Assembly: GCA_049325595.1 (NCBI GenBank)
Contig: JBMOLF010000015.1
Location: 64,001 to 128,000, forward strand
DNA length: 64,000 nucleotides
Direction of reading: 5' to 3'
Source of the DNA: Candidatus Babelota bacterium
GTDB lineage: Bacteria; Babelota; Babeliae; Babelales; Vermiphilaceae
The notes under the pieces are model-generated. The model made no database searches, was not told the origin of the DNA, and worked only from the letters and a program-made list of their open reading frames with translations. The position numbers and the translations under genes are program-made. Positions 17,043-30,484 of the stretch are shown one piece after another (position 1 is the stretch's first letter; the number at the start of each line of letters is the position of its first letter).

Positions 17043-17116
17043 TGGGGCGTAGCCAAGTGGTAAGGCACCGGGTTTTGGCTCCGGCACCGGAGGTTCGAAT
17101 CCTCCCGCCCCAGCCA
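17043..17116 (+). tRNA. tRNA-Gln (anticodon TTG)
   Basis: Acceptor stem TGGGGCG/CGCCCCA, D-arm AGCCAAGTGGTAAGGC, anticodon loop TTTTGGC, GGTTCGAATCC, encoded CCA. Confidence 0.95.
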
Positions 17117-17200
17117 GTCTTCGTTCTCAAGAACTTCTTCTGGCATCCTTCTACGTTAAAAACTTCGTAGGACAAGAGCCATCAAATTTAAAAGCGATTT
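17113..17200 (+). repeat. 88-bp direct repeat A, copy 1 (overlaps the tRNA 3' GCCA)
   Basis: 83/88 nt identical to 22564-22651; two imperfect hairpins. Confidence 0.9.
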
Positions 17201-17272
17201 GTATTTTTACAAGTTGCTTTTTTTGTTTTTAAATGTGATTTAATATAGTTATTTTTATAGTCATAGTAATTA

Positions 17273-17680
17273 ATGCAGAATTTTCATATGAAAAAAGTTA
17301 TTGCGGCCGTTTTTGCAAAAGATGGCAAAGTTCTGATAGCGCAACGAGCAAAAAAAGATGTGCTTTTTGGTAAATGGGAATTTCCTGGTGGCAAGCTTGA
17401 AGACAATGAAACCGAACATGAGTGTTTAAAGCGTGAACTATTTGAAGAGCTTGGTATACATGTTGAAGTCGGTTCTTACATCTGCTCAAGTTATTTTGAA
17501 CACAAAAACGCACCCTATGAAATGAGGGCATATTTTGTTACTTCATATTCCGGTGAATTTGTTTTGCATGAGCATCAAGAAATCAAATGGGTTGCTCATG
17601 AAGAACTATCTGAGTACGATATGCCAGAACCGGATAAGCCTATAGTGGAAAAGCTACTTGAAATTAATATGAAGAAATAA
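17273..17680 (+). CDS. MutT-like NUDIX hydrolase, copy 1
   Basis: WEFPGGKLEDNETEHECLKRELFEELGI Nudix box. Confidence 0.9.
   Translation: MQNFHMKKVIAAVFAKDGKVLIAQRAKKDVLFGKWEFPGGKLEDNETEHECLKRELFEELGIHVEVGSYICSSYFEHKNAPYEMRAYFVTSYSGEFVLHEHQEIKWVAHEELSEYDMPEPDKPIVEKLLEINMKK
17371..17655 (+). repeat. 285-bp repeat identical to 24799-25083
   Basis: Manual comparison found no mismatch from taaatgggaa to gtggaaaagct. Confidence 0.88.
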
Positions 17681-17862
17681 ATAATTAATTGTTAAATTTT
17701 AATTAAACAGACTAACGTTAGTATTAGGTTATATCACTAACGCTTTTTTTATTAAGTTTTATTTGTTCATTAAGAAGCCTAAATAAAATCTGCTAGACTC
17801 TTTTGATAGATTGAATGTGCAAAATAAGTTCCTTAATAAACAACTTTCAATAGTTGTAACTG

Positions 17863-18279
17863 CTATTTACTCTTTTTGCGAGCATGAATAGCTTTTGATG
17901 TTGGTGAAGAAGTAGGTTGTTTTTTAAGTGGGCTTTTCTTAATAGGAGTGGTAATAGCTACCGTTACACTTGCTTTGGTTGTTGATCGTTTTTTTGGAGC
18001 AACCGTTATGGTTATTGCTTGGCCTAAAATATTTAAAAAGCGAAAAAGCCTTTCAAGAGAAAATCCTGATAATTTCCCTTTACTCAGCGCAGAAATTTTT
18101 GGTTGATCAATAGAAAGCAGTTCAGCTGCTGCTGCTTGCGTAAGGCCTTGTTGCTTGATTAAAGTATTGATTTGTCGGGCAAGCTCTGCCTTAGCAAGAC
18201 GTTCTTCTGGATTTGCAACACCAAGATCAGCAAATACATTTCCTGAACTTACTTCATAATCATTAGTATGTTTTTTCAT
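17863..18279 (-). CDS. HigA-like XRE/HTH antitoxin with a basic C-terminal tail
   Basis: SSGNVFADLG, LTQAAAAELLSIDQPKISAL, FSLERLF; lies downstream of a toxin. Confidence 0.85.
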   Translation of the reverse strand: MKKHTNDYEVSSGNVFADLGVANPEERLAKAELARQINTLIKQQGLTQAAAAELLSIDQPKISALSKGKLSGFSLERLFRFLNILGQAITITVAPKKRSTTKASVTVAITTPIKKSPLKKQPTSSPTSKAIHARKKSK

Positions 18280-18283
18280 GGCC

Positions 18284-18646
18284 TTACTTCTTCTTAAATT
18301 TTTCTTTATAAATTTCTTCAGCTAATTTCAATCTACTTTTTATAAGCTCTATGTCTTGTTGTGGTGTTTTAATGCCCTGCTTTGATTTCTTTTGAAAAGC
18401 ATGAAGCACAAACACTACTTCAGGCATGGTAACCGTGTACACTACCCGATAGGTTCCAGCAGCATCAGAATCTTTAATTTCAATAACACCAGCACTACCA
18501 AATCCTTTAAGAACTTTTGCATGTTCAGGCATTTGACCCTTTTGAGCAAGGTATAACCCATAGCCCATGGAGTCTATCACCTCATCAGGGAGATCTTGTA
18601 AATCTTTTTTGCTTGAGCCAATCCAGATCAGTTCTTTGTGTTTCAT
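18284..18646 (-). CDS. RelE/HigB-like (phage gp49 type) toxin
   Basis: WIGSSKKDL, GTYRVVY, VLHAFQKKSKQGIKTP; toxin-first gene order. Confidence 0.85.
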   Translation of the reverse strand: MKHKELIWIGSSKKDLQDLPDEVIDSMGYGLYLAQKGQMPEHAKVLKGFGSAGVIEIKDSDAAGTYRVVYTVTMPEVVFVLHAFQKKSKQGIKTPQQDIELIKSRLKLAEEIYKEKFKKK

Positions 18647-18658
18647 TTTTGCTACTCA

Positions 18659-18694
18659 GTTAAAATTATACCATATTTGGCATAATTTAACAAT
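18659..18694 (-). promoter_or_regulatory. TA promoter overlapped by an inverted-repeat operator
   Basis: Minus strand TTGTTA-17 nt-TATAAT overlapping the imperfect palindrome gttaaaattatacca-tatt-tggcataatttaac. Confidence 0.6.
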
Positions 18695-18761
18695 AATTTA
18701 ACTCAAAGGCAAAAAGTATGCAAAATTGTTTATAGTTAGATTATTTCTTTAAGCAGCAACC

Positions 18762-19898
18762 CTATCTTTTTATAAATTTCTTATACTGCTTATTAATCGG
18801 TTCGAATTTGACCAATTGTTCCCGCAATGCCTTAAAATGATCAAGAGCCCTAGACAGTTGTATCTTGCTTACATCTGCAATGAGTCGTTGCCAGCTTCGC
18901 GGCGAGCAGCGTGAAAACATAGTTCTTAATTCACGCATGTCCATGATTTCAAGCACTTTTTTAAAGCCATACAGCTGTAATAGTTGTTTTGGCCCTAAAT
19001 TGGGATTATTAAACATTAAATCAACGAGCAAGGCTTTACCATTGGTTGATTGGTAATCAAGCAATAGCGGGCGCTTGCTAACGAGTTCATCAAAATAATG
19101 TAACAAAACCTTTTTAGAAATCGCGGGTTTGAACATTTTTTTAAAGGTTACATCAGTTTTAATACCAAGCTTGGTGAACAACTCTTTAATTTTAACGCGC
19201 TTGTTTAACCGCACTTCCATGCGTAGCACTTCAAACTTAGTGCGTCTTTTTTGCAATTGTTCGTGGGTGGTTAATTGAAGTTCGTTATCTTTTTCAACTG
19301 CTCGCTTATTACTGGTCTGAGCTTTTTCAAGATCGCGAATTTTATCATAGAAAGCGACTTCATAATAATTGGTAAGCCATTTAAAACTGTGGCCGGCATT
19401 GCGATAGGCAGTTTCATTTACATCAAGTGAGAGCTTGGTGTTAGCTTCTTTGATTTTGTTAATGTAAAAATGTGGCGTTGAGCCATCGGTTAAACACATG
19501 TTTTTTGAATAATGGATGGCAGATACGGGTGCTGATGCGATTGCAGTTGAGGTTGTGCATATGCCCATTGCTTGTAGCGTTGCTACTAGTTTGTTAATGA
19601 TGGATGGAAAATCTTTGTAACGCAGTTCGCTAAAATTGTTGCCAAATACGAGCTTGGGTAATGACAGTTCAATTTTAAGAATAATTTCTGGTTTGCCTAA
19701 AAGATTATAACGATATGCAAGAGTAAGACGCGGCTTATAGATTCCTTTTGTGAGTTCTTTTTTTAAAGGGTTTTGCTTTGATTGCATGCCACGTTCAATT
19801 TTTTTTGAAAGTGCCCATGCTGCTGATGGGATAAATAACTCTGGATCGGTAATTTCAAACAAATCTCTACTCAGGGTAATAACTATCGTGTCAATCAT
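18762..19898 (-). CDS. Putative rolling-circle replication initiator (phage/plasmid gene II/X, Rep_trans-like)
   Basis: MIDT start, SLPKLVFGNNF, FYDK and LRMEVRL motifs. Confidence 0.6.
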   Translation of the reverse strand: MIDTIVITLSRDLFEITDPELFIPSAAWALSKKIERGMQSKQNPLKKELTKGIYKPRLTLAYRYNLLGKPEIILKIELSLPKLVFGNNFSELRYKDFPSIINKLVATLQAMGICTTSTAIASAPVSAIHYSKNMCLTDGSTPHFYINKIKEANTKLSLDVNETAYRNAGHSFKWLTNYYEVAFYDKIRDLEKAQTSNKRAVEKDNELQLTTHEQLQKRRTKFEVLRMEVRLNKRVKIKELFTKLGIKTDVTFKKMFKPAISKKVLLHYFDELVSKRPLLLDYQSTNGKALLVDLMFNNPNLGPKQLLQLYGFKKVLEIMDMRELRTMFSRCSPRSWQRLIADVSKIQLSRALDHFKALREQLVKFEPINKQYKKFIKR

Positions 19899-20015
19899 GA
19901 TGCTCGCTACAAGGTGATATTATTTTGCATGCATCAAGGATAAAAGAGATGGTAATAAAGACAAGCGTAAATGATTAGTTAATATTTGAGAATTTCGTGT
20001 ATTGGTTCGTGACTT

Positions 20016-20243
20016 TTATCGAGTAAGCAATAGATAAAGAATTACAGCGATAATAATTGCTAATAAAGAAGCCCGCTCAATGAGCGAGCCTACTGTGCGC
20101 CCTTGATTGGGAGCTTTTGATTGTTTGGTTTTTGAACTGCTTATACGCTTATCAATGGTGGCCAGTATCTGAAAGAACGTAGCCAATCGTTGTTGATCTG
20201 AAAAAGACAATAGTCTTTGTGTTGTTTGCTTTTTTAGAGACAT
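20016..20243 (-). CDS. Small hypothetical protein upstream of the Rep-like gene
   Basis: 75-aa ORF with an amphipathic FFQILATIDKR helix and a hydrophobic C-terminus. Confidence 0.45.
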   Translation of the reverse strand: MSLKKQTTQRLLSFSDQQRLATFFQILATIDKRISSSKTKQSKAPNQGRTVGSLIERASLLAIIIAVILYLLLTR

Positions 20244-20303
20244 AAAAAAATTGTTGATTGTTAGATCAATTTAAAAATAAATAATACTTAAGTGGATTAC
20301 TTA

Positions 20304-21206
20304 GAGCCTATCCGGAAATTAAATTTTTCTAAGAACAATGATCTGGCAAGCAAATTGAAGTAGAGCTAGATGATTGTTTGCTAACTTATCCCATCGTATT
20401 AAAAGTCGCCTGAATCGAGTTATCCAAGAAAAAGTGCGTTCAACGCCCCATCGAAATTTAAGGTTAACTTTTTGAGAAATTTGATTTCTGCGCTTGTTGC
20501 AACTAATTCTGAAAGAGTACCCTCGACTTGCCAAATATTTTCGAATAAAAGATGCATCGAATGCTGCGTCTAGTTCAATGGTTTTGAATGGTAATATTCG
20601 ACTATAAATTTGATTGGCAATTGTTGAAATAAATGTTTTTGAATCATGCGTATTACCAGCAAAAAGATTTATTGCCAACGGAATGCCATTTTTATCAATT
20701 AAAAGAGCTTTTTTTGTTCCTAACTTCCTCCGATCAACTGGACTTAAGCCTGTTTCTTGGCCACCAAGCGGAGCTTTTGCATGACTGCAATCAAAGGATT
20801 GATTTTGCAAATTAAGCCCTATAAATCGATCATATTTTTCAAGAGCATGATGCCATGCTTGTGCAAAAAAATCAGTTTTTACTAGTCTTTGAAAGTGCTC
20901 ATGAATTGTTGATGAAGGACCAAAACATTTTGGTAAAGCGTTCCATTGACAGCCAGTTTTCAATAGATAAAATATGCCTTGTAAAATTGCTAATGGCTCA
21001 CTTTTAGGCCTGCCTTTTTTAATTTTTTGTGGCATAAATTTTAAAAGATGTAATACTTGTTCATCATTCATCAAAAACTTTTTTGATATGCATGTTGCAA
21101 AGCATGTATTCATAAAATCCTCTCTTCTTTTTTTTCATCGGAAATTTAGAGAGGATTTTACTTTTTAATACCTATTTTTTCAAATTATGATTTTCCGGAT
21201 AGGCTC
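20304..21206 (-). mobile_element. IS5-family insertion sequence, 903 bp
   Basis: Perfect 15-bp TIRs GAGCCTATCCGGAAA (20304-20318 and 21192-21206); TTA target duplication (20301-20303 and 21207-21209). Confidence 0.93.
20319..21113 (-). CDS. IS5-family DDE transposase
   Basis: GCQWNALP, D...D...RWGVERTFSWITRFRRL motifs. Confidence 0.92.
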   Translation of the reverse strand: MNTCFATCISKKFLMNDEQVLHLLKFMPQKIKKGRPKSEPLAILQGIFYLLKTGCQWNALPKCFGPSSTIHEHFQRLVKTDFFAQAWHHALEKYDRFIGLNLQNQSFDCSHAKAPLGGQETGLSPVDRRKLGTKKALLIDKNGIPLAINLFAGNTHDSKTFISTIANQIYSRILPFKTIELDAAFDASFIRKYLASRGYSFRISCNKRRNQISQKVNLKFRWGVERTFSWITRFRRLLIRWDKLANNHLALLQFACQIIVLRKI

Positions 21207-21317
21207 TTAATAAGAAAGCTCAAATGAAGAGCTGAATGATTCAGAAATGCATTTGCAATCTAAGAGCCATGATGACGTATGCAAATGCTCGTGCGGCCTA
21301 TAGATGTATGGATTCAT
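21207..21317 (-). CDS. Putative 36-aa micro-ORF MNPYIYRPHEHLHTSSWLLDCKCISESFSSSFELSY (absent from the ORF track)
   Basis: GAGAG RBS-like sequence; the homolog at 25928-25993 keeps MNxY..RxHEHLH with synonymous changes and a 6-nt indel. Confidence 0.45.
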   Translation of the reverse strand: MNPYIYRPHEHLHTSSWLLDCKCISESFSSSFELSY

Positions 21318-21442
21318 GGGATTACTCTCTTGCATAGATTGCTTTTGATGTTACTACTTGATTGGCAAGTATATCTAATTTAATGGTTAACTCAAGCGAA
21401 ATCGAGTGAAAAGCAAAGAAGGCTGTATCTGTTACAGCCTTC
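21234..21442 (-). repeat. Repeat B, copy 1: terminator + promoter + structured leader/micro-ORF
   Basis: Clearly homologous to 25903-26117, with conserved stems. Confidence 0.8.
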
Positions 21443-21462
21443 TTTTTAAACAGCTTAACTAT

Positions 21463-22293
21463 TTAATCTTTTAATTTTTCTAAATATTTTATAGCTTCTT
21501 GATTGCCACTATCTTTGATCCATTCACGGAGTGTTTTACGATCTAGACTCCAGCTAAATTCCAGTGGTTGATTATTAATAAAATTTGAGCCAAATATTTT
21601 TTGTACCGTATCAATAATTAAAGCAAGAATTTGTGTATTGGAGGTATTCTCTACACCTAAATAGATTTTATATTCATCTTCGATTCCTAAGTAGAAAACT
21701 TTGAGGAGCTCATTTCCAATTTTATTAGTGAAGGTAAATCGATTATTGATAAAAAAATTATTAAGGGCACCTAAAATTATGGCACTTACTTCTTCGCTTT
21801 TGCATAAAATTCCTTCATTGGAAGTTGATACATTGAATAATGACAAGTAATTTTTCAAATCTTGTTTTGTTATTGTCTGCTTTTGATTTTTTATGCTATT
21901 TATTAAACTATTAATTTGACCTTTTGCATCCGGAATCTTTGCAAAATGAACTAATGCTTCTTTTAAAATTCTTAAAGTTTTTTGTTGAATGTTGGGATTA
22001 TCATAATTACCAGAAGCCAATGCTGTTAAAGAAAGATCAAATTTTTGATTGAGTATTTTTTTAATAGATTCTTTGTTTTCTTTTATATAGTGAGCGATTG
22101 CTTTATTAACTTGTGCATAGTTACTTAAAAGAGTAAGTGCTTCATCACGAGTGCTTGATGTATTTAATATTTGTTTTATTATTTCTGTAGTTTGTAACTC
22201 ATAAGGCAAATCAGTAAATTTTAGTAGGTTTTTTTCCATAGTGGAAACATCCATGACTATCAATGAGCCTAAGAGTAAATAATATAATTTCAT
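21463..22293 (-). CDS. Secreted protein with an N-terminal F-box-like motif
   Basis: Signal peptide, then MEKN...FTDLPYELQTTEIIKQIL; paralog of 28558-29373. Confidence 0.65.
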   Translation of the reverse strand: MKLYYLLLGSLIVMDVSTMEKNLLKFTDLPYELQTTEIIKQILNTSSTRDEALTLLSNYAQVNKAIAHYIKENKESIKKILNQKFDLSLTALASGNYDNPNIQQKTLRILKEALVHFAKIPDAKGQINSLINSIKNQKQTITKQDLKNYLSLFNVSTSNEGILCKSEEVSAIILGALNNFFINNRFTFTNKIGNELLKVFYLGIEDEYKIYLGVENTSNTQILALIIDTVQKIFGSNFINNQPLEFSWSLDRKTLREWIKDSGNQEAIKYLEKLKD

Positions 22294-22563
22294 ACCAGGT
22301 CCTTCAGAGGTATTTATTTTCTTAGTATATATCCACTAATATACCAAAATAACAATTCAAATTGTAATATTTTTTTGTTTAGATTGCATAGATATAAATA
22401 AACTAACTTATTAAAATGCATCAGAAGTAATTTTTTGTAAAAGAGATTCAAATTTTTTAACTAAATTTTTGTTTTAATCCTAAAACTGAATATGCGGTTG
22501 GGATGCGTTATAAAGTAAATCCAAACTCAATTTTTCCGTTCCTGAACGCGTCTATTAAGTCTA

Positions 22564-22651
22564 GCTAGTCTTCGTTCTCAAGAACTTTGTCTAGCATTCT
22601 TCTACGTTAAAAACTTCGTAGGACAAGAGCCATCAAATTTAAAAGCGATTT
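22564..22651 (+). repeat. 88-bp direct repeat A, copy 2
   Basis: 5 mismatches versus 17113-17200, two of them compensatory (GCCAG/CTGGC to GCTAG/CTAGC). Confidence 0.9.
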
Positions 22652-24139: not shown

Positions 24140-24679
24140 ATGAAAAAACATTTTGTGTGTTTCTTGTACTTAGGATCTATTGTTGCTGGAGAACAAATTG
24201 ATTTGCTCAAGAACTATAATCTGCGAGAGCCATATTATCCATCGTATGTTGATTTAAATCACTATGGGTTTTGTTTACGCGCTGCAAAAGATTTGCCTGC
24301 GGGAACCGTTGTGGCGACGGCAAATTTTGAAGAAAGCAATAATCCTTATATTGCCAATCACTCTGATCCTGAATATAAATATGTTGCATTAGTAGATGTG
24401 AATGCTGAAGGTATTCCAACGTGGGGAAGAATTAGAGGAAAATGGGCATTTTGTAATCATTCCTGTGATCCTAACTGTGATATTAAGCCCGGATGGATTA
24501 TTACCACGAATCGTTTTATACAACAAGGTGATGAACTTACTACTTCTTATGATGCATATATACCAGGTTTTGCATGGCCTGATAATTGGAATTTTTCCTG
24601 TTTATGTCAGACTGCCAACTGCAAGAAATTTATTACTGGGTATCGATTTGATATGATATATCCGCTAGCTCGTCAATAA
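24140..24679 (+). CDS. SET-domain lysine methyltransferase with post-SET cysteines, probably exported
   Basis: GFCLRAAKDL, FCNHSCDPN, ELTTSY, CLCQTANC; signal-like N-terminus. Confidence 0.88.
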   Translation: MKKHFVCFLYLGSIVAGEQIDLLKNYNLREPYYPSYVDLNHYGFCLRAAKDLPAGTVVATANFEESNNPYIANHSDPEYKYVALVDVNAEGIPTWGRIRGKWAFCNHSCDPNCDIKPGWIITTNRFIQQGDELTTSYDAYIPGFAWPDNWNFSCLCQTANCKKFITGYRFDMIYPLARQ

Positions 24680-24700
24680 GATATACAACGGGATGTATCA

Positions 24701-25099
24701 ATGAATAATTCGGTTACAAAAAAAGTAATTGCGGCAGTATTGGTAAAAGATAATACCGTGCTGATAGCCCAGCGCGCAAAGCCAGATGTGAACTATGATA
24801 AATGGGAATTTCCTGGTGGCAAGCTTGAAGACAATGAAACCGAACATGAGTGTTTAAAGCGTGAACTATTTGAAGAGCTTGGTATACATGTTGAAGTCGG
24901 TTCTTACATCTGCTCAAGTTATTTTGAACACAAAAACGCACCCTATGAAATGAGGGCATATTTTGTTACTTCATATTCCGGTGAATTTGTTTTGCATGAG
25001 CATCAAGAAATCAAATGGGTTGCTCATGAAGAACTATCTGAGTACGATATGCCAGAACCGGATAAGCCTATAGTGGAAAAGCTTCTTGAGATTATTTAA
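24701..25099 (+). CDS. MutT-like NUDIX hydrolase, copy 2
   Basis: Nudix box; 3' part identical in DNA to copy 1. Confidence 0.9.
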   Translation: MNNSVTKKVIAAVLVKDNTVLIAQRAKPDVNYDKWEFPGGKLEDNETEHECLKRELFEELGIHVEVGSYICSSYFEHKNAPYEMRAYFVTSYSGEFVLHEHQEIKWVAHEELSEYDMPEPDKPIVEKLLEII

Positions 25100-25101
25100 T
25101 T

Positions 25102-25431
25102 TTATCTACCGCGAGCAAGTGCTGCAGCATAATTAAATTGATAAAAATAATCTTGCCATTCTTGGTCAGTTGATTGGTATTCATTGTCAAATGCAAAATG
25201 ATCAACAAGTAAATACCGGGCGCGGCATAGTTCTTTAAGACGTTTTTTGTTTTTAGGATCAGCGATGGTAAGATCTAATAATTCTAACGCACGTTCAAAA
25301 GCTTGTCGGCTGTATTCAGAGTTTTTATTTTTCCATTCTATAGTACGCTCAATATCCATGCCAACATTGGCAAGTTGTTCAAAAAGGGTAAATTTGAACC
25401 ATCGCTCGTGAGTTAAATCTTTATGTATCAT
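25102..25431 (-). CDS. Helical hypothetical protein, coupled to the upstream gene
   Basis: ATGA overlap with 25428-25808; EQLANVG..IER and ELCRAR motifs. Confidence 0.65.
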   Translation of the reverse strand: MIHKDLTHERWFKFTLFEQLANVGMDIERTIEWKNKNSEYSRQAFERALELLDLTIADPKNKKRLKELCRARYLLVDHFAFDNEYQSTDQEWQDYFYQFNYAAALARGR

Positions 25432-25808
25432 GGTTTTACCAATTTCATTACAATTTTAATAATTTTTTGTTGGATTTGAGGATTTTCAACAGTTCGTGAG
25501 CGATTTCCTTGGCTAGGACGCAAATTAATCATCGAATCAAATTTAATAAATTCTGGTTTTCCCCAATGTTGCGGATACAGATTAATTCCCCAAAGATTTT
25601 CTTGTTTTGAGTCATATTTTTCGAGCAACCAGGTTTCTTGGTCGACATGCATTGGTGCATCAACAATCATTACTTCTTTTTCAACGTCTACTACGGCTTT
25701 GACTAATGCCTCAAACATTTTAGTGGACATTTGTTTAAGTTCTTCAAGAAAAATTTCTTTTTCTACCAGTTTCATAAATCTTCCATTTTTACTAAATTTA
25801 ATAGCCAA
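25428..25808 (-). CDS. DUF5674-like protein
   Basis: KAVVDVEK, MHVDQE, LWGINLYP, SMINLRPSQGNRSR. Confidence 0.7.
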   Translation of the reverse strand: MAIKFSKNGRFMKLVEKEIFLEELKQMSTKMFEALVKAVVDVEKEVMIVDAPMHVDQETWLLEKYDSKQENLWGINLYPQHWGKPEFIKFDSMINLRPSQGNRSRTVENPQIQQKIIKIVMKLVKP

Positions 25809-25902
25809 TACTAAAAAGATTACACGCTAATCTTCAAAGTTCAACTTATATGGCTATAAGTTAATCTTTTCTTGTTTTTTATAGGTATCTTAATTATAAA
25901 AA

Positions 25903-26117
25903 GAATGATTCAGAAATGCATTTGCAATCAGAAAGCCATGCATAAATTATGCAGGTGCTCGTGCTGCCTGATAATGTAGTTGTATAGATTCATGAGTGTA
26001 CTCTTTGTTTTGATTGCTTTTATGTTACTACTTGGTGGGCAAGTATATCTAATTTAATGATTAGTGCAACTGGCTAGGATTGAAAAAATAAAGAAGGCTG
26101 TGTACCTTGCAGCCTTC
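25903..26117 (-). repeat. Repeat B, copy 2, containing the 21-aa micro-ORF MNLYNYIIRQHEHLHNLCMAF (25928-25993)
   Basis: Homologous to 21234-21442. Confidence 0.8.
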
Positions 26118-26127
26118 CTTTATTTGA

Positions 26128-26550
26128 TTATCTATTTAATTTATTGATAGTTTCCAAATATTTAATTGCTTCTTGATTATTGGACTTTCTCACCGTATCG
26201 AGTAGGGTTCCTTCGGAATTATAACCCATTTCTTTATCAATAAATTTCGGACCAAATATTTTTACTGCTGTATTAATAATTAAAGTTATAATCTGTGTCC
26301 AATTTTTATCTTTACCCATTGTGCCAATATGATCTTTCAATAAGTCGACAAACTCGAGCTCAGAAAGTTTGAAATCCACCTTATTATTACTAAAAGCGTT
26401 GTTTATTGTACCTAACACTACGGCAGCAAGCTGAAATTTATTGGGATATCCCGATCCAAGTATTTTTCCTAAATATTCTATATCACCACCTATGCCTAGA
26501 AAAACACTATCACTTCTCTCTTTAGTGTTAATATAAGTTACTAAAATTAA
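26128..26550 (-). pseudogene. Orphan C-terminal half of the 21463/28558 protein family
   Basis: Frame is open to about 26550 with no signal peptide or F-box-like part; shares TQII.LII...IFG..FI and NQEAIKYLE. Confidence 0.6.
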
Positions 26551-28557: not shown

Positions 28558-29373
28558 TCATTGATTTTTTATAGTTTCTAAATATTTAATAGCAGCTTTA
28601 TTACCCGTAGTTCTGGTAAAATTAAACAAAGTACCGCTTTTTGACATATGCTGGCCAATTTCATTATCAATAAAATTGGGTCCAAATAATGTTATGGCTT
28701 GATTGATGATTGAAATTAAAATTTGAGTTAATGGTTTATTCTTTCCAAAAAAACTAATAAAACCTTTGAGCAAATCTACAAATTGTGACTCATTATTTTT
28801 ATTTAGTACCGGATGAGTATGATTAATAAAATTATCGAATACGCCTATAAGAGCTGCACTTAATGAATAATCTTTATCTAGCAGTGATCGAGCAAGAAGA
28901 CCTATGTACATGTGTACATTCACAATAGTTATTTTATCATTTTTATTTTTAATAAATGTTATTAAGGTATTTAAGGTCTCGCTATAGGAACTATATTTGT
29001 GTGTTGCTTTTTGCAAAACTTTTATTGTTTCTGCTTTGATATTGGGATCATTATAATTACCTGAAGTTAAAACAGTTAATGAAAGACCAAATTTTTGATC
29101 GAGTATTTTTTGGATAGTATCTTTATTTTCTTTTATGTATTCAGCGATTGCTTTATTAACTTGTGCATAGTTGTTTAAAAGAGTAAGTGCTTCATCGCGA
29201 GTATTTGAGATGTGTAATAATTGCTTTACTATCTCTGTTGTTTGAATATCAGATGGTAGTTCTGGTAACGAACTAGTAAAGGGTTGAGTAACCCATTTTT
29301 TTATTTTATTCCAAACGCCCATGCTAAAAATTGGCGAGTTTAAAAATAAAATCAAAATTATGAGCTTTTTCAT
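28558..29373 (-). CDS. Secreted F-box-like protein, paralog of 21463-22293; likely start MKKLII
   Basis: GGAG RBS; LPELPSDIQTTEIVKQLL; TRDEALTLL.NYAQVNKAIA shared with the paralog. Confidence 0.65.
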   Translation of the reverse strand: MKKLIILILFLNSPIFSMGVWNKIKKWVTQPFTSSLPELPSDIQTTEIVKQLLHISNTRDEALTLLNNYAQVNKAIAEYIKENKDTIQKILDQKFGLSLTVLTSGNYNDPNIKAETIKVLQKATHKYSSYSETLNTLITFIKNKNDKITIVNVHMYIGLLARSLLDKDYSLSAALIGVFDNFINHTHPVLNKNNESQFVDLLKGFISFFGKNKPLTQILISIINQAITLFGPNFIDNEIGQHMSKSGTLFNFTRTTGNKAAIKYLETIKNQ

Positions 29374-29692
29374 GAAAGTATTTCTCCAATTAATGCTTAA
29401 TGATCCCAAAGAATCGCACAATAAATTAATTTTATATGATTATTCTTAATGTTGGAGTTCTTTAGTTTACCAGTTTCATAATGCAGATTGTAATAGTTTT
29501 AAAAATAGGTTTGTTTAACATAAAGGTTGTAATTAATTTAGTTAATTGGTCTCAAATGCATTTTTATGTTACATTAATAAAAATTACTTATTAAATTTCT
29601 GCTCTTAAGCGTATTAATAAATTTTCCATACCTACTAAGGTTAGTGTACCCAAATAGAAAAATGCACTTAGTGAATATAAGCAGGATAAATT

Positions 29693-30484
29693 ATGAAAAA
29701 AATAATACAGAGCAATCGACCACTAAATGGTCAATTGCTTGATACCATTAAAGCAGCATTTAATTCTTCGATTGACTTTACTCAATATCCATTTTGCTTG
29801 GATGTGGTACAAAATTTAAAAGAAATTAAGTTTACAACACCAGTTACCTTTTTTGTTGGAGAAAATGGTACCGGTAAATCAACTATTCTTGAAGCAATTG
29901 CTTATCATGCCGGTTTTGGTATTGAAGGTGGTAGCAAAAATATTAATTTTAAAACGGCATCAGAAAAGCATTATTCAAGCGCAGAGCAATTAGCAGATTG
30001 CTTAACTTTATCCTGGAATCGAAAATCTGAAGATGGTTATTTTTTTAGGGCAGAAACATTTTATAATGTTGCTAATCATCTTGACCATATAGCGCTTTTT
30101 GGCGGAGGTGGTGATAAAACTTATGCTCCGTATGGTGGTAAATCATTGCATGAACAATCTCATGGTGAAAGTTTTTTATCTTTTTTTAAAAATCGGTTGG
30201 GGAAAGGTGGCTTTTTTGTATTAGACGAGCCAGAGGCCGCACTTTCTCCCCAACGGCAGTTGTCTTTAATGGTTATTATTAATCAATTATGCAAGCAAAG
30301 TTCTGCTCAATTTATTATTGCTACCCATTCACCGTTACTTTTGGCTTATCCAGGTGCAGTTATTTATTCTTGTGATAATGGTAAACTTGATACTAAATCT
30401 TATAAAGATACTGATCATTATCAAATAACCAAAAGTTTTTTGGATAATACTGATTATTTTTTGCATCATTTGTTTAATGATTAA
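29693..30484 (+). CDS. Stand-alone ABC/AAA-type ATPase (COG3910-like)
   Basis: GENGTGKST, SHGESF, LDEPEAALSP, IATHSP. Confidence 0.85.
   Translation: MKKIIQSNRPLNGQLLDTIKAAFNSSIDFTQYPFCLDVVQNLKEIKFTTPVTFFVGENGTGKSTILEAIAYHAGFGIEGGSKNINFKTASEKHYSSAEQLADCLTLSWNRKSEDGYFFRAETFYNVANHLDHIALFGGGGDKTYAPYGGKSLHEQSHGESFLSFFKNRLGKGGFFVLDEPEAALSPQRQLSLMVIINQLCKQSSAQFIIATHSPLLLAYPGAVIYSCDNGKLDTKSYKDTDHYQITKSFLDNTDYFLHHLFND

Follow-up and report, generated by a model that had tools for sequence, protein, structure and literature searches.

A probable translated leader of a replication module in Babeliales, present as two damaged copies in one genomic region

Introduction

In this report, we describe a short, structured segment that occurs twice on the minus strand of a 64,000-nucleotide (nt) stretch of DNA from Candidatus Babelota bacterium (GenBank assembly GCA_049325595.1, contig JBMOLF010000015.1, positions 64,001 to 128,000). 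We refer to this whole stretch as 'the window', and count positions from its first letter. Each segment comprises a terminator-like hairpin, a promoter and a very short open reading frame (ORF), which we call the micro-ORF. We consider it probable that a conserved replication module of two genes has, next to its promoter, a leader that is translated and regulatory, and that both segments derive from this leader and have since been damaged. The module consists of a gene for a small basic protein followed by one for a probable rolling-circle replication initiator (Rep). It resides on a mobile element that is common in the amoeba-associated Babeliales (Dependentiae), multi-copy and patchy in its distribution.

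The two copies

The segments lie at 21234-21445 (copy 1) and 25903-26121 (copy 2), and are 77% identical over 209 aligned nt. They have in common two perfect blocks, of 22 and 27 nt, the longer of which has just these two occurrences in the window and is absent from all of 100 shuffles. The features of the two copies are as follows.

Copy 1
21415..21445, minus: terminator-like hairpin of 13 pairs with a T-rich tail, closing the upstream paralogous gene (21463-22293)
21368..21395, minus: sigma-70-like promoter TTGAGT-16-TATACT (promoter scan, 9/12), homologous in position to the family promoter
21355..21371, minus: inverted repeat TACTTG-CCAAT-CAAGTA, a tentative operator-like site overlapping the -10 box
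21207..21317, minus: micro-ORF MNPYIYRPHEHLHTSSWLLDCKCISESFSSSFELSY, 36 codons plus stop (ATG 21315-21317, TAA 21207-21209)
21234..21260, minus: 27-nt block identical in copies 1 and 2, in a different reading frame in each
Copy 2
26093..26117, minus: terminator-like hairpin of 10 pairs, after a truncated paralogue (26128-26418); the scan gave the plus strand, the hairpin being symmetric
26042..26069, minus: promoter TTGCAC-16-TATACT, found by eye, homologous to the family promoter
26029..26045, minus: inverted repeat TACTTG-CCCAC-CAAGTA
25928..25993, minus: micro-ORF MNLYNYIIRQHEHLHNLCMAF, 21 codons plus TGA
25946..25975, minus: family hairpin ATTATCAGG/CCTGCATAAT, 9 pairs with a 1-nt bulge and an 11-nt loop, beginning 18 nt past the AUG

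A first-pass annotation of the window had reported this pair, together with the terminator, the two promoters, the inverted repeat TACTTG-N5-CAAGTA with its variable spacer, and micro-ORFs that differ by 6-nt and 1-nt indels and by synonymous changes (CAT/CAC and TTG/CTG). Reading and alignment confirm all of this. Between the two terminator-like hairpins the stem is kept and the loop varies; in the inverted repeat, likewise, the arms are kept and the spacer differs. The repeat was seen in copies 1 and 2 only, and not in more distant relatives. It is followed in both copies by a weak purine-rich stretch and then the ATG, with calculated anti-Shine-Dalgarno duplexes of -4.2 kcal/mol in copy 1 and -2.4 kcal/mol in copy 2. 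The promoter of copy 2 falls below the scan threshold, with 3/6 matches in its -35 box. Copy 1 alone has a weak, 5-pair terminator-like site (21217-21233), within the end of its ORF.

Each copy departs from the family described below in its own way. Copy 1 retains its promoter, its AUG, the family frame through a box that encodes W-L, and its native stop; a 6-nt deletion has removed the 5' arm of the family hairpin, and an insertion sequence (IS) now stands between it and the module. Copy 2 retains its promoter, its ATG and the hairpin, which is present in its minimum-energy fold; a 1-nt insertion (G at 25941) shifts its reading, so that the TGGCT (W-L) box no longer falls in the family frame, and it is orphaned, having no module behind it.

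The same annotation proposed a fold-back of ~95 nt that buries the ribosome-binding site and AUG. The closing stem of this structure does appear in both minimum-energy folds, but the folds are no better than those of shuffles (z = +0.87 and +0.13; +0.29 and +0.19 for the opposite strand). Pairing between the 5' untranslated region and the ORF gives z = -1.08 and -0.94 in the two copies and a mean z of -0.29 in the relatives, with 5/29 below -2, and we have given up this part of the proposal.

A 151-nt contig from another metagenome (sequencing run X5, record 28) matches copy 2 at 25902-26048, the two differing at 17 positions. At 25941 the contig lacks 1 nt, and after 26021 it has an insertion; copy 1 departs from copy 2 at both of these places as well. 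The contig is probably a third allele of the leader. Contigs from the four DNA sequencing runs that were searched do not cover copy 1.

The replication module and its interruption

Downstream of the two copies on the minus strand are the following features.

20304..21206, minus: IS5-family IS; transposase 20319-21113, with DUF4096 and DDE_Tnp_1 matches
20244..20303, minus: remaining 60 nt of the copy 1 leader (spacer), beyond the IS; loose alignment to the spacers in two other leaders of the source genome (contigs C19 and C10)
20016..20243, minus: small basic ORF of 75 amino acids (aa), with which the module opens; alignable with 20 small ORFs found ahead of Rep homologues
18762..19898, minus: 378-aa probable rolling-circle Rep; 1247 homologues, weak profile matches
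25102..25808, minus: genes now 3' of copy 2, a DUF5674 protein (25428-25808) and a 109-aa ORF (25102-25431)

The IS is present as a single copy in the assembly, with ends GAGCCTATCCGGAAA (inverted repeat) and a TTA target duplication. It inserted exactly at the stop codon of the copy 1 micro-ORF, parting the leader from its operon: the right-hand TTA duplication is, on the minus strand, the TAA stop itself. Because of this overlap, position 21207, from which the first-pass annotation began the locus, is indeed the end of the micro-ORF but also the edge of the inserted element. The annotation had supposed, too, that the leaders govern downstream cargo. For copy 1 the cargo is the replication module, now cut off by the IS; for copy 2 it is an unrelated operon, encoding the DUF5674 protein (Pfam E = 2.4e-27) and its partner, for which nothing was found in NCBIfam or PHROGs. 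Neither Rep nor the small basic ORF lies downstream of copy 2, which sits 128 nt, by count, upstream of the ATG at 25775 and may serve as promoter and leader of the DUF5674 operon.

The 378-aa protein is a probable rolling-circle replication initiator, judging by distant profile similarity. Its 1247 homologues are all named simply as hypothetical proteins of Babeliales. Among 18 members of the family, the Phage_CRI profile matches 2 (best E = 3.1e-6) and phrog_702, 'replication protein', matches 5 (best E = 1.7e-6). The member in the window (member 1) itself matches nothing in NCBIfam or PHROGs, and nothing meaningful in a sequence profile search of the PDB. Its AlphaFold model has a pLDDT of 58, and Foldseek found nothing in the PDB at E = 0.001 or better. 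The small basic ORF has no meaningful match in Pfam and none in NCBIfam or PHROGs. Its alignment with the 20 small ORFs reveals the motif VL..D..R...FF.LL..VD.R and a lysine-rich stretch.

The leader family and where it occurs

The Rep gene occurs in 13 of 41 genomes, including the source genome, which has three copies. The source genome has five leaders: two on contig C15 (copies 1 and 2), and one each on C10, C19 and C5. Four of the five precede a small ORF, and Rep is seen for three of these four; the fourth, on C5, is a short contig that carries the leader ahead of another small ORF and ends before a Rep gene could appear. At the two Reps of the source genome that lie outside the window, the small basic ORF is preceded by a relative of the leader with the layout TTGCAA-16-TATACTTGC, then GTAATAAAGCAAAC, then CCCATGAATCTG, in which the micro-ORFs read MNLFYILDCAIWLSKHNHYENNLHIN and MNLFYIIDYALWLSESRHNHPQKQFAY.

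The comparison set, whose loci carry the prefix L, was extended by 80 Rep loci from public genomes. Iterated nhmmer searches place the leader in 29 of 61 distinct Rep loci, and 28 of the 29 matches lie between ~800 and 240 nt upstream of the Rep start; the remaining one, L033, is further out (-1098 to -886). A covariance model, designated R1 but unrelated to the plasmid of that name, was built on 29 sequences, copies 1 and 2 among them in the training alignment. It finds the leader in 33 of 87 loci and twice in the window: at 21249-21381 in copy 1 (58.8 bits, E = 1.1e-6) and at 25918-26055 in copy 2 (56 bits, E = 3.3e-6). All 33 locus matches are upstream of Rep and on the Rep strand; homology and position are both shown by the comparison. 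The model has no match in loci labelled as candidate-phyla-radiation bacteria. Of 151 genomes sampled from the order, 12 contain a leader match.

BLAST of copy 1 against 40 relatives returned only chance matches of 17-35 nt. Exact-word scans with parts of the perfect blocks gave no match in genome contigs or in viral contigs, and in metagenome contigs gave two loci, both chance matches in unrelated sequence. A search of Rfam, proposed in the first-pass annotation, matched no family to the leader: at the gathering threshold it reports only a tRNA in the window, and an E-value search with four leader loci yields only a chance Trp_leader match (E = 0.91) inside the small ORF. A literature search at the level of listings and abstracts found no description of the leader or of its mobile element.

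The arrangement of the module varies among relatives. In L023 (a 461-aa ORF) and in homologues of 452-488 aa, the small basic ORF and Rep form a single in-frame fusion. Other relatives have the two in different frames, with the end of the small ORF running ~50 nt past the Rep start; in the window, a gap of 117 nt separates them. Such fused, overlapping and separate forms could reflect a split gene, decay or programmed frameshifting. At L066, L118, L081, L068, L105 and L048, the leader is 1.4-2.2 kb upstream of Rep, rather than the usual ~0.5 kb, and extra genes or longer first ORFs occupy the interval.

Promoter, start site, reading frame and peptide

The family promoter has the form cTTGCAAt-17-TATAMT. 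When 28 leaders were scanned, 19 promoter-like matches fell in a single 20-nt bin, 41-60 nt upstream of the micro-ORF ATG, and no other bin held more than 3; copy 1 was left out of this count, its IS lying inside the scanned span. One alignment (A4) has an invariant T17 and a nearly invariant T12 and A13, which we read as positions 6, 1 and 2 of the -10 box. An intact leader has a 5' untranslated region of ~40 nt with a Shine-Dalgarno site. The aligned start codon (ATG, and GTG once) has a mean anti-Shine-Dalgarno duplex of -5.7 kcal/mol, with 23/29 at or below -4, versus a mean of -0.85 for the other 146 ATGs of the same leaders, 7% of which reach -4.

Conservation of the frame is evident from several counts. 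Of 31 leaders, 29 contain a micro-ORF with a length of 21-49 codons. The frame remains open for at least 20 codons in 30/31 (median 34), versus 12/31 for the +2 frame. Each of the other five frames, read across this open stretch, is stop-free in just 1-7 of 29 leaders. Two leaders had been dropped after the first count: L033, with a 2-codon ORF in an odd position, and L058, a weak match whose ORF runs to at least 69 codons. Between related leaders, 8 of 9 internal indel runs are multiples of 3, and all seven covariance-model matches outside the training set have the ATG and an ORF of 27-43 codons.

The peptide is only weakly constrained, and the start, the frame and the rough position of the stop are all much better conserved than it is. 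The ratio of replacement to synonymous differences per site (pN/pS) ranges from 0.27 to 1.68. The parts that recur are an N-terminus of the form M-N/K-x-hydrophobic-x-hydrophobic-I/L-R and, later, the W-L box (TGGCT). The first-pass annotation had singled out HEHLH as a conserved peptide; this sequence proves to be lineage-specific, confined to copies 1 and 2, with H-N-H in the other three copies of the source genome. Histidine at this place is limited to those five copies, and the cluster is missing from most relatives. None of 11 micro-ORF peptides has a meaningful Pfam match. By eye, charged and polar residues occur throughout, and no hydrophobic helix is long enough to span a membrane. An ORF on the reverse strand (MIQKCICN...) is not conserved as an open frame.

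The early hairpin

A stem of at least 5 base pairs begins between +12 and +25 nt after the AUG in 19 of 29 leaders, versus 8.8 +/- 2.4 in shuffles (maximum 15). Its arms vary in a compensatory manner (e.g. ATCAGG/CCTGAT, ATCAGAT/ATCTGAT, TTCAGG/CCTGAA, TTAGACA/TGTCTAA and CAGAA/TTCTG), and its loops are not conserved across the family. RNAalifold predicted no pairs on a MAFFT alignment of 29 leaders, so the hairpin was specified by hand.

Covariation was scored twice, each time with a bias of its own. In 16 sequences that were picked after the hairpin had been seen, 83.9% of cells pair (shuffles 71.8 +/- 2.4), 5 of 6 pairs have compensatory changes, and the covariation score is 0.307 versus 0.132, a value reached by none of 500 shuffles. 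In all 35 covariance-model matches, whose alignment is fitted to the structure and has L020 and L049 misaligned by a few columns, 70.1% of cells pair (shuffles 61.1 +/- 2.1; slid controls 25-37%), and the score is 0.257 versus 0.156, again reached by 0/500. The hairpin thus covaries in both sets. What the first-pass annotation had said of selection on both RNA structure and peptide stands in altered form: the conserved elements are the frame and this early hairpin, not the fold-back or HEHLH.

The spacer between the micro-ORF and the small ORF is 46-130 nt long and contains further hairpins. One of these recurs, GCTGAT-loop-ATCAGC; after it comes a GATGATAC/GATCATAC box, which immediately precedes the ribosome site of the small ORF. 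The hairpin is found in L054, L062, L059, L021, L034, L023, L024 and L020, and its arms resemble those of the hairpin within the micro-ORF.

Interpretation

The evidence supports a cis-acting leader that has a promoter of its own and a short, very probably translated ORF. The comparison supports selection on both the reading frame and the RNA hairpin, which becomes visible only when ~30 relatives are set side by side. A cis-regulatory leader with a promoter and short ORF is what the first-pass annotation had proposed, and the homologues and covariance model that it called for bear the proposal out in part: with 33 of 87 loci matched, the frame is kept and the early hairpin covaries. Transcription, translation and any regulatory coupling of the leader we infer from these features. 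A frame that is kept while the peptide drifts is also the pattern reported for leader peptides in plasmid replication control (PMC5304414; PMC5717011), and for this reason we take the block to be, most likely, a regulatory leader that is translated. The expression level of the replication operon would be determined by ribosomes moving along the micro-ORF, with the early hairpin as a gate. The hairpin may modulate initiation or early elongation, and the leader would act as a copy-number control module akin to the leader-peptide regions of plasmid rep genes, where the act of translation, rather than the peptide, matters.

Several observations weigh against this interpretation. From the micro-ORF stop to the next start is 46-130 nt in 22 of 24 leaders (the remaining two gaps, of 151 and 194 nt, are doubtful small-ORF calls in L088 and L025), a distance that makes direct termination-reinitiation coupling of the kind found in plasmid R1 unlikely. 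Nor is there support for the idea that translation of the micro-ORF unmasks the small-ORF ribosome site. By thermodynamic prediction, the mean unpaired probability of this site is 0.39 when the RNA is free and 0.46 when the micro-ORF is held open, and the micro-ORF is the main pairing partner of the site in no more than 5 of 21 leaders. Alternative pairing between hairpin and spacer was also tried and is not enriched (mean z = -0.37; 2/20 below -2). No position-conserved antisense promoter emerged from a scan limited to a sigma-70-like consensus, the opposite strand having at most 3 matches per bin in 28 leaders. The bias among codon positions is weak: across 6 pairs, the first, second and third positions have 19, 18 and 28 substitutions. 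Some relatives change frame in the C-terminal half (L065 versus L112 and L069, read by eye). The sequences are related, moreover, and so counts overstate their independence, in addition to the selection and fitting that attend the two hairpin scores. The Rep assignment comes from weak profile matches, and the fold model is poor and matched nothing. And both copies in the window deviate from the family pattern, and may do nothing today. The candidates for coupling that remain are suppressed premature termination, protection of the mRNA and a peptide-dependent pause. In relatives' spacers inspected by eye, rather than by systematic scan, hairpins are present but no U-run terminator was seen between the micro-ORF and the next gene.

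A bolder version of the translated-leader interpretation is conceivable, though we think it rather unlikely: that the micro-ORF and early hairpin form an undescribed kind of translational control device, portable as a module, which sets the replication of a large, undescribed family of integrative, rolling-circle-type elements in Dependentiae. Such a device would employ neither stop-start coupling nor a recognizable antisense RNA, and might act by ribosome loading or pausing at a hairpin located just beyond the initiating ribosome. Copy 2 would then be an instance of the module captured as promoter and leader of unrelated genes.

Other explanations have to be weighed against a translated regulatory leader. 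The micro-ORF might simply encode a small protein with a function of its own, which would make it a third, so far unannotated gene of the module and not a regulatory leader. Conservation of start and frame, and recurrence of the N-terminal and W-L motifs, would be expected of such a gene, and pN/pS is low in some pairs (0.27 and 0.36); a hand count between the C5 and C19 leaders finds 5 synonymous and 3 replacement changes, and a script assigns 3, 1 and 4 substitutions to the three codon positions. In most pairs, however, pN/pS is 0.5-1.7. The C-terminal halves vary freely and sometimes change frame, lengths range from 21 to 49 codons, 0/11 peptides match Pfam, and part of the apparent peptide conservation is explained by the hairpin arms (ATCAGG being read as I-R). 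We regard this explanation as unlikely, while leaving it some weight. Quite improbable, in our view, is that the block acts as DNA—a double- or single-strand replication origin, or a binding site for Rep or a repressor—with the ORF incidental. It would account for the constant proximity of a probable rolling-circle initiator, for the hairpins and palindromes, and for the inverted repeat, operator-like, that overlaps the -10 box of copies 1 and 2. The Shine-Dalgarno site and AUG, the open frame and the in-frame indels would be left unexplained, and a nick site in the hairpin loop would be conserved, whereas the loops vary. The two copies might also be mere leftovers of segmental duplication with no function of their own. 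Both follow paralogous genes, in a region rich in duplicated pieces (tRNA flank 94%, NUDIX gene 90%); both are damaged relative to the family; and their exact DNA is matched by none of 40 genomes. Yet the leader flank is ~80% identical in nucleotides, versus 58% for the adjacent paralogous coding sequence, whose synonymous sites are near saturation (pS 0.675), and a third paralogue has no such flank; the pair is therefore not simply a duplicate of the same age as those genes. Copy 2 is unchanged in a near-identical strain (metagenome run X2; 0 differences over 25750-26500). A family with conserved features across many genomes refutes duplication as an account of the segment's origin, and as a whole we judge the explanation very improbable.

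Two further proposals, both raised in the first-pass annotation, fare worse. That the locus is a type I toxin-antitoxin system, or another small toxin controlled by antisense RNA, is suggested by its location on a mobile element and by the combination of a structured leader with a short ORF. By eye, the peptides lack the hydrophobic, membrane-spanning helix of such toxins and are charged throughout. The leaders have no position-conserved antisense promoter in the consensus scan, no conserved ORF on the reverse strand and no Rfam match, and we find the idea hardly plausible. To a histidine- or metal-responsive attenuator working through the HEHLH codons we give next to no credence. There are three histidine codons within five in copies 1 and 2, and H-x-H in the other three copies of the source genome, but the three are not consecutive, most relatives lack them, and by eye they overlap the hairpin arm GCATAAT. 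Nor was a U-run terminator, as in an attenuator, seen in those relatives whose spacers were inspected by eye; copy 1 alone has the weak 5-pair site.

Comparison with known systems

Leader ORFs ahead of replication genes are a classic form of plasmid copy-number control, and the well-studied cases come mainly from a few proteobacterial plasmid groups. The RepY/RepB leaders of IncI-alpha and IncB plasmids are among these leader-peptide control regions. In the ermC- and cat-type leaders of resistance genes, too, a translated leader ORF holds a hairpin arm near its start, and alternative pairings free the downstream ribosome site. The Babeliales leader resembles these in having a hairpin arm within a short leader ORF, and differs in that no consistent alternative pairing was found.

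The closest parallels come from plasmids, and two accounts describe them. One reports portable replication-control modules in which stem-loops accompany a leader peptide, and in which rep expression depends on the translation of this leader and not on the peptide made (PMC5304414); the other covers tap-repA coupling in plasmid R1 and, for the rolling-circle plasmid pMV158, the copG-repB operon (PMC5717011). In tap-repA and its antisense RNA CopA (IncFII), as described there, a short ORF in the leader of the initiator transcript keeps its frame while the peptide drifts, and stem-loops lie near the ORF start, much as in Babeliales (PMC5717011). The differences are several. Unlike the R1 leader ORF of that account, which abuts the next start, the Babeliales ORF ends 46-130 nt before it, and the next gene encodes the small basic protein, not Rep. 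Unlike R1 with CopA, the Babeliales leaders gave no antisense promoter in the consensus scan, and their predicted structures show no unmasking of a downstream ribosome site as described for R1. R1-type leaders and the Babeliales leader have no relationship in sequence or in Rfam.

The REx-C 'control' modules of Pseudomonas plasmid replicons are similarly compact and portable, and combine stem-loops, a putative leader peptide and signals for rep expression (PMC5304414). They are exchanged between replicons, and their leader peptides are strongly divergent; the orphaned copy 2 would fit such portability. Unlike the Babeliales leader, REx-C is described as having a putative antisense RNA and a leader ORF translationally coupled to rep (PMC5304414), and host phylum and initiator family are unrelated. 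In copG-repB, one regulated promoter drives a small protein gene together with the rolling-circle initiator gene that follows it (PMC5717011), an arrangement that recalls the Babeliales module and, in copies 1 and 2, the operator-like inverted repeat over the -10 box. Unlike that module, pMV158 has no leader micro-ORF before copG and uses the antisense RNAII (PMC5717011). The small basic ORF has no detectable family, and so a CopG-like repressor role for it is only a guess.

Significance

If read correctly, the leader would place a control device comparable to those of plasmids in Babeliales, on a mobile element for which our literature search turned up no description; the two copies in the window would be damaged members of a wider and apparently undescribed family. 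Babeliales are obligate associates of protists, and we know of no genetic tools for them. The leader is a defined and testable regulatory unit, with promoter, start site, frame and hairpin, and its covariance model, which finds relatives, could make it a marker of the replication module in metagenomes. The window also illustrates the decay and reuse of control modules, with one copy cut by an IS at its stop codon and the other stranded before different genes.

Genomic surroundings

Just downstream of Rep lies a Gp49/DUF891 (HigB-like) and HTH_37 gene pair (17863-18646), likely a toxin-antitoxin pair. Comparable pairs adjoin Rep in several relatives (e.g. L023, L028 and L031).

An 89-nt stretch from the 3' end of tRNA-Gln (17112-17200) is repeated, with 94% identity, at 22563-22651. 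A contig from run X2 joins the tRNA 3' end directly to the second repeat and then jumps to the NUDIX gene at 24799. The region at 17043-22651 looks as if it holds an island of ~5.4 kb inserted beside the tRNA, with an empty site in the close strain, and the flank repeat and empty site are consistent with an integrated element. The island contains a NUDIX copy, the toxin-antitoxin pair, Rep, the small ORF, the IS, the leader and a secreted paralogue; no recombinase gene was seen inside it.

The two NUDIX genes (17273-17680 and 24701-25099) are 90% identical over their first 300 nt (17269-17568 and 24697-24996), and the C-terminal parts of their proteins are identical. Between the two lies a gene for a SET-domain protein (24140-24679; Pfam E = 1.1e-12), a eukaryote-like methyltransferase domain. 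The paralogous genes upstream of copies 1 and 2 belong to a family of secreted-looking proteins with no Pfam match (21463-22293, 26128-26418 and 28558-29421 in the window, and 198-983 in L039), which are 43-47% identical to one another; the copy at 26128-26418 is a C-terminal piece only. In the source genome, three of the five leaders have a member of this family as their immediate upstream neighbor. The third paralogue in the window is adjoined by a gene for an AAA_21/AAA_15 ATPase (29693-30484), with AbiEii-type family names, which may be related to defense.

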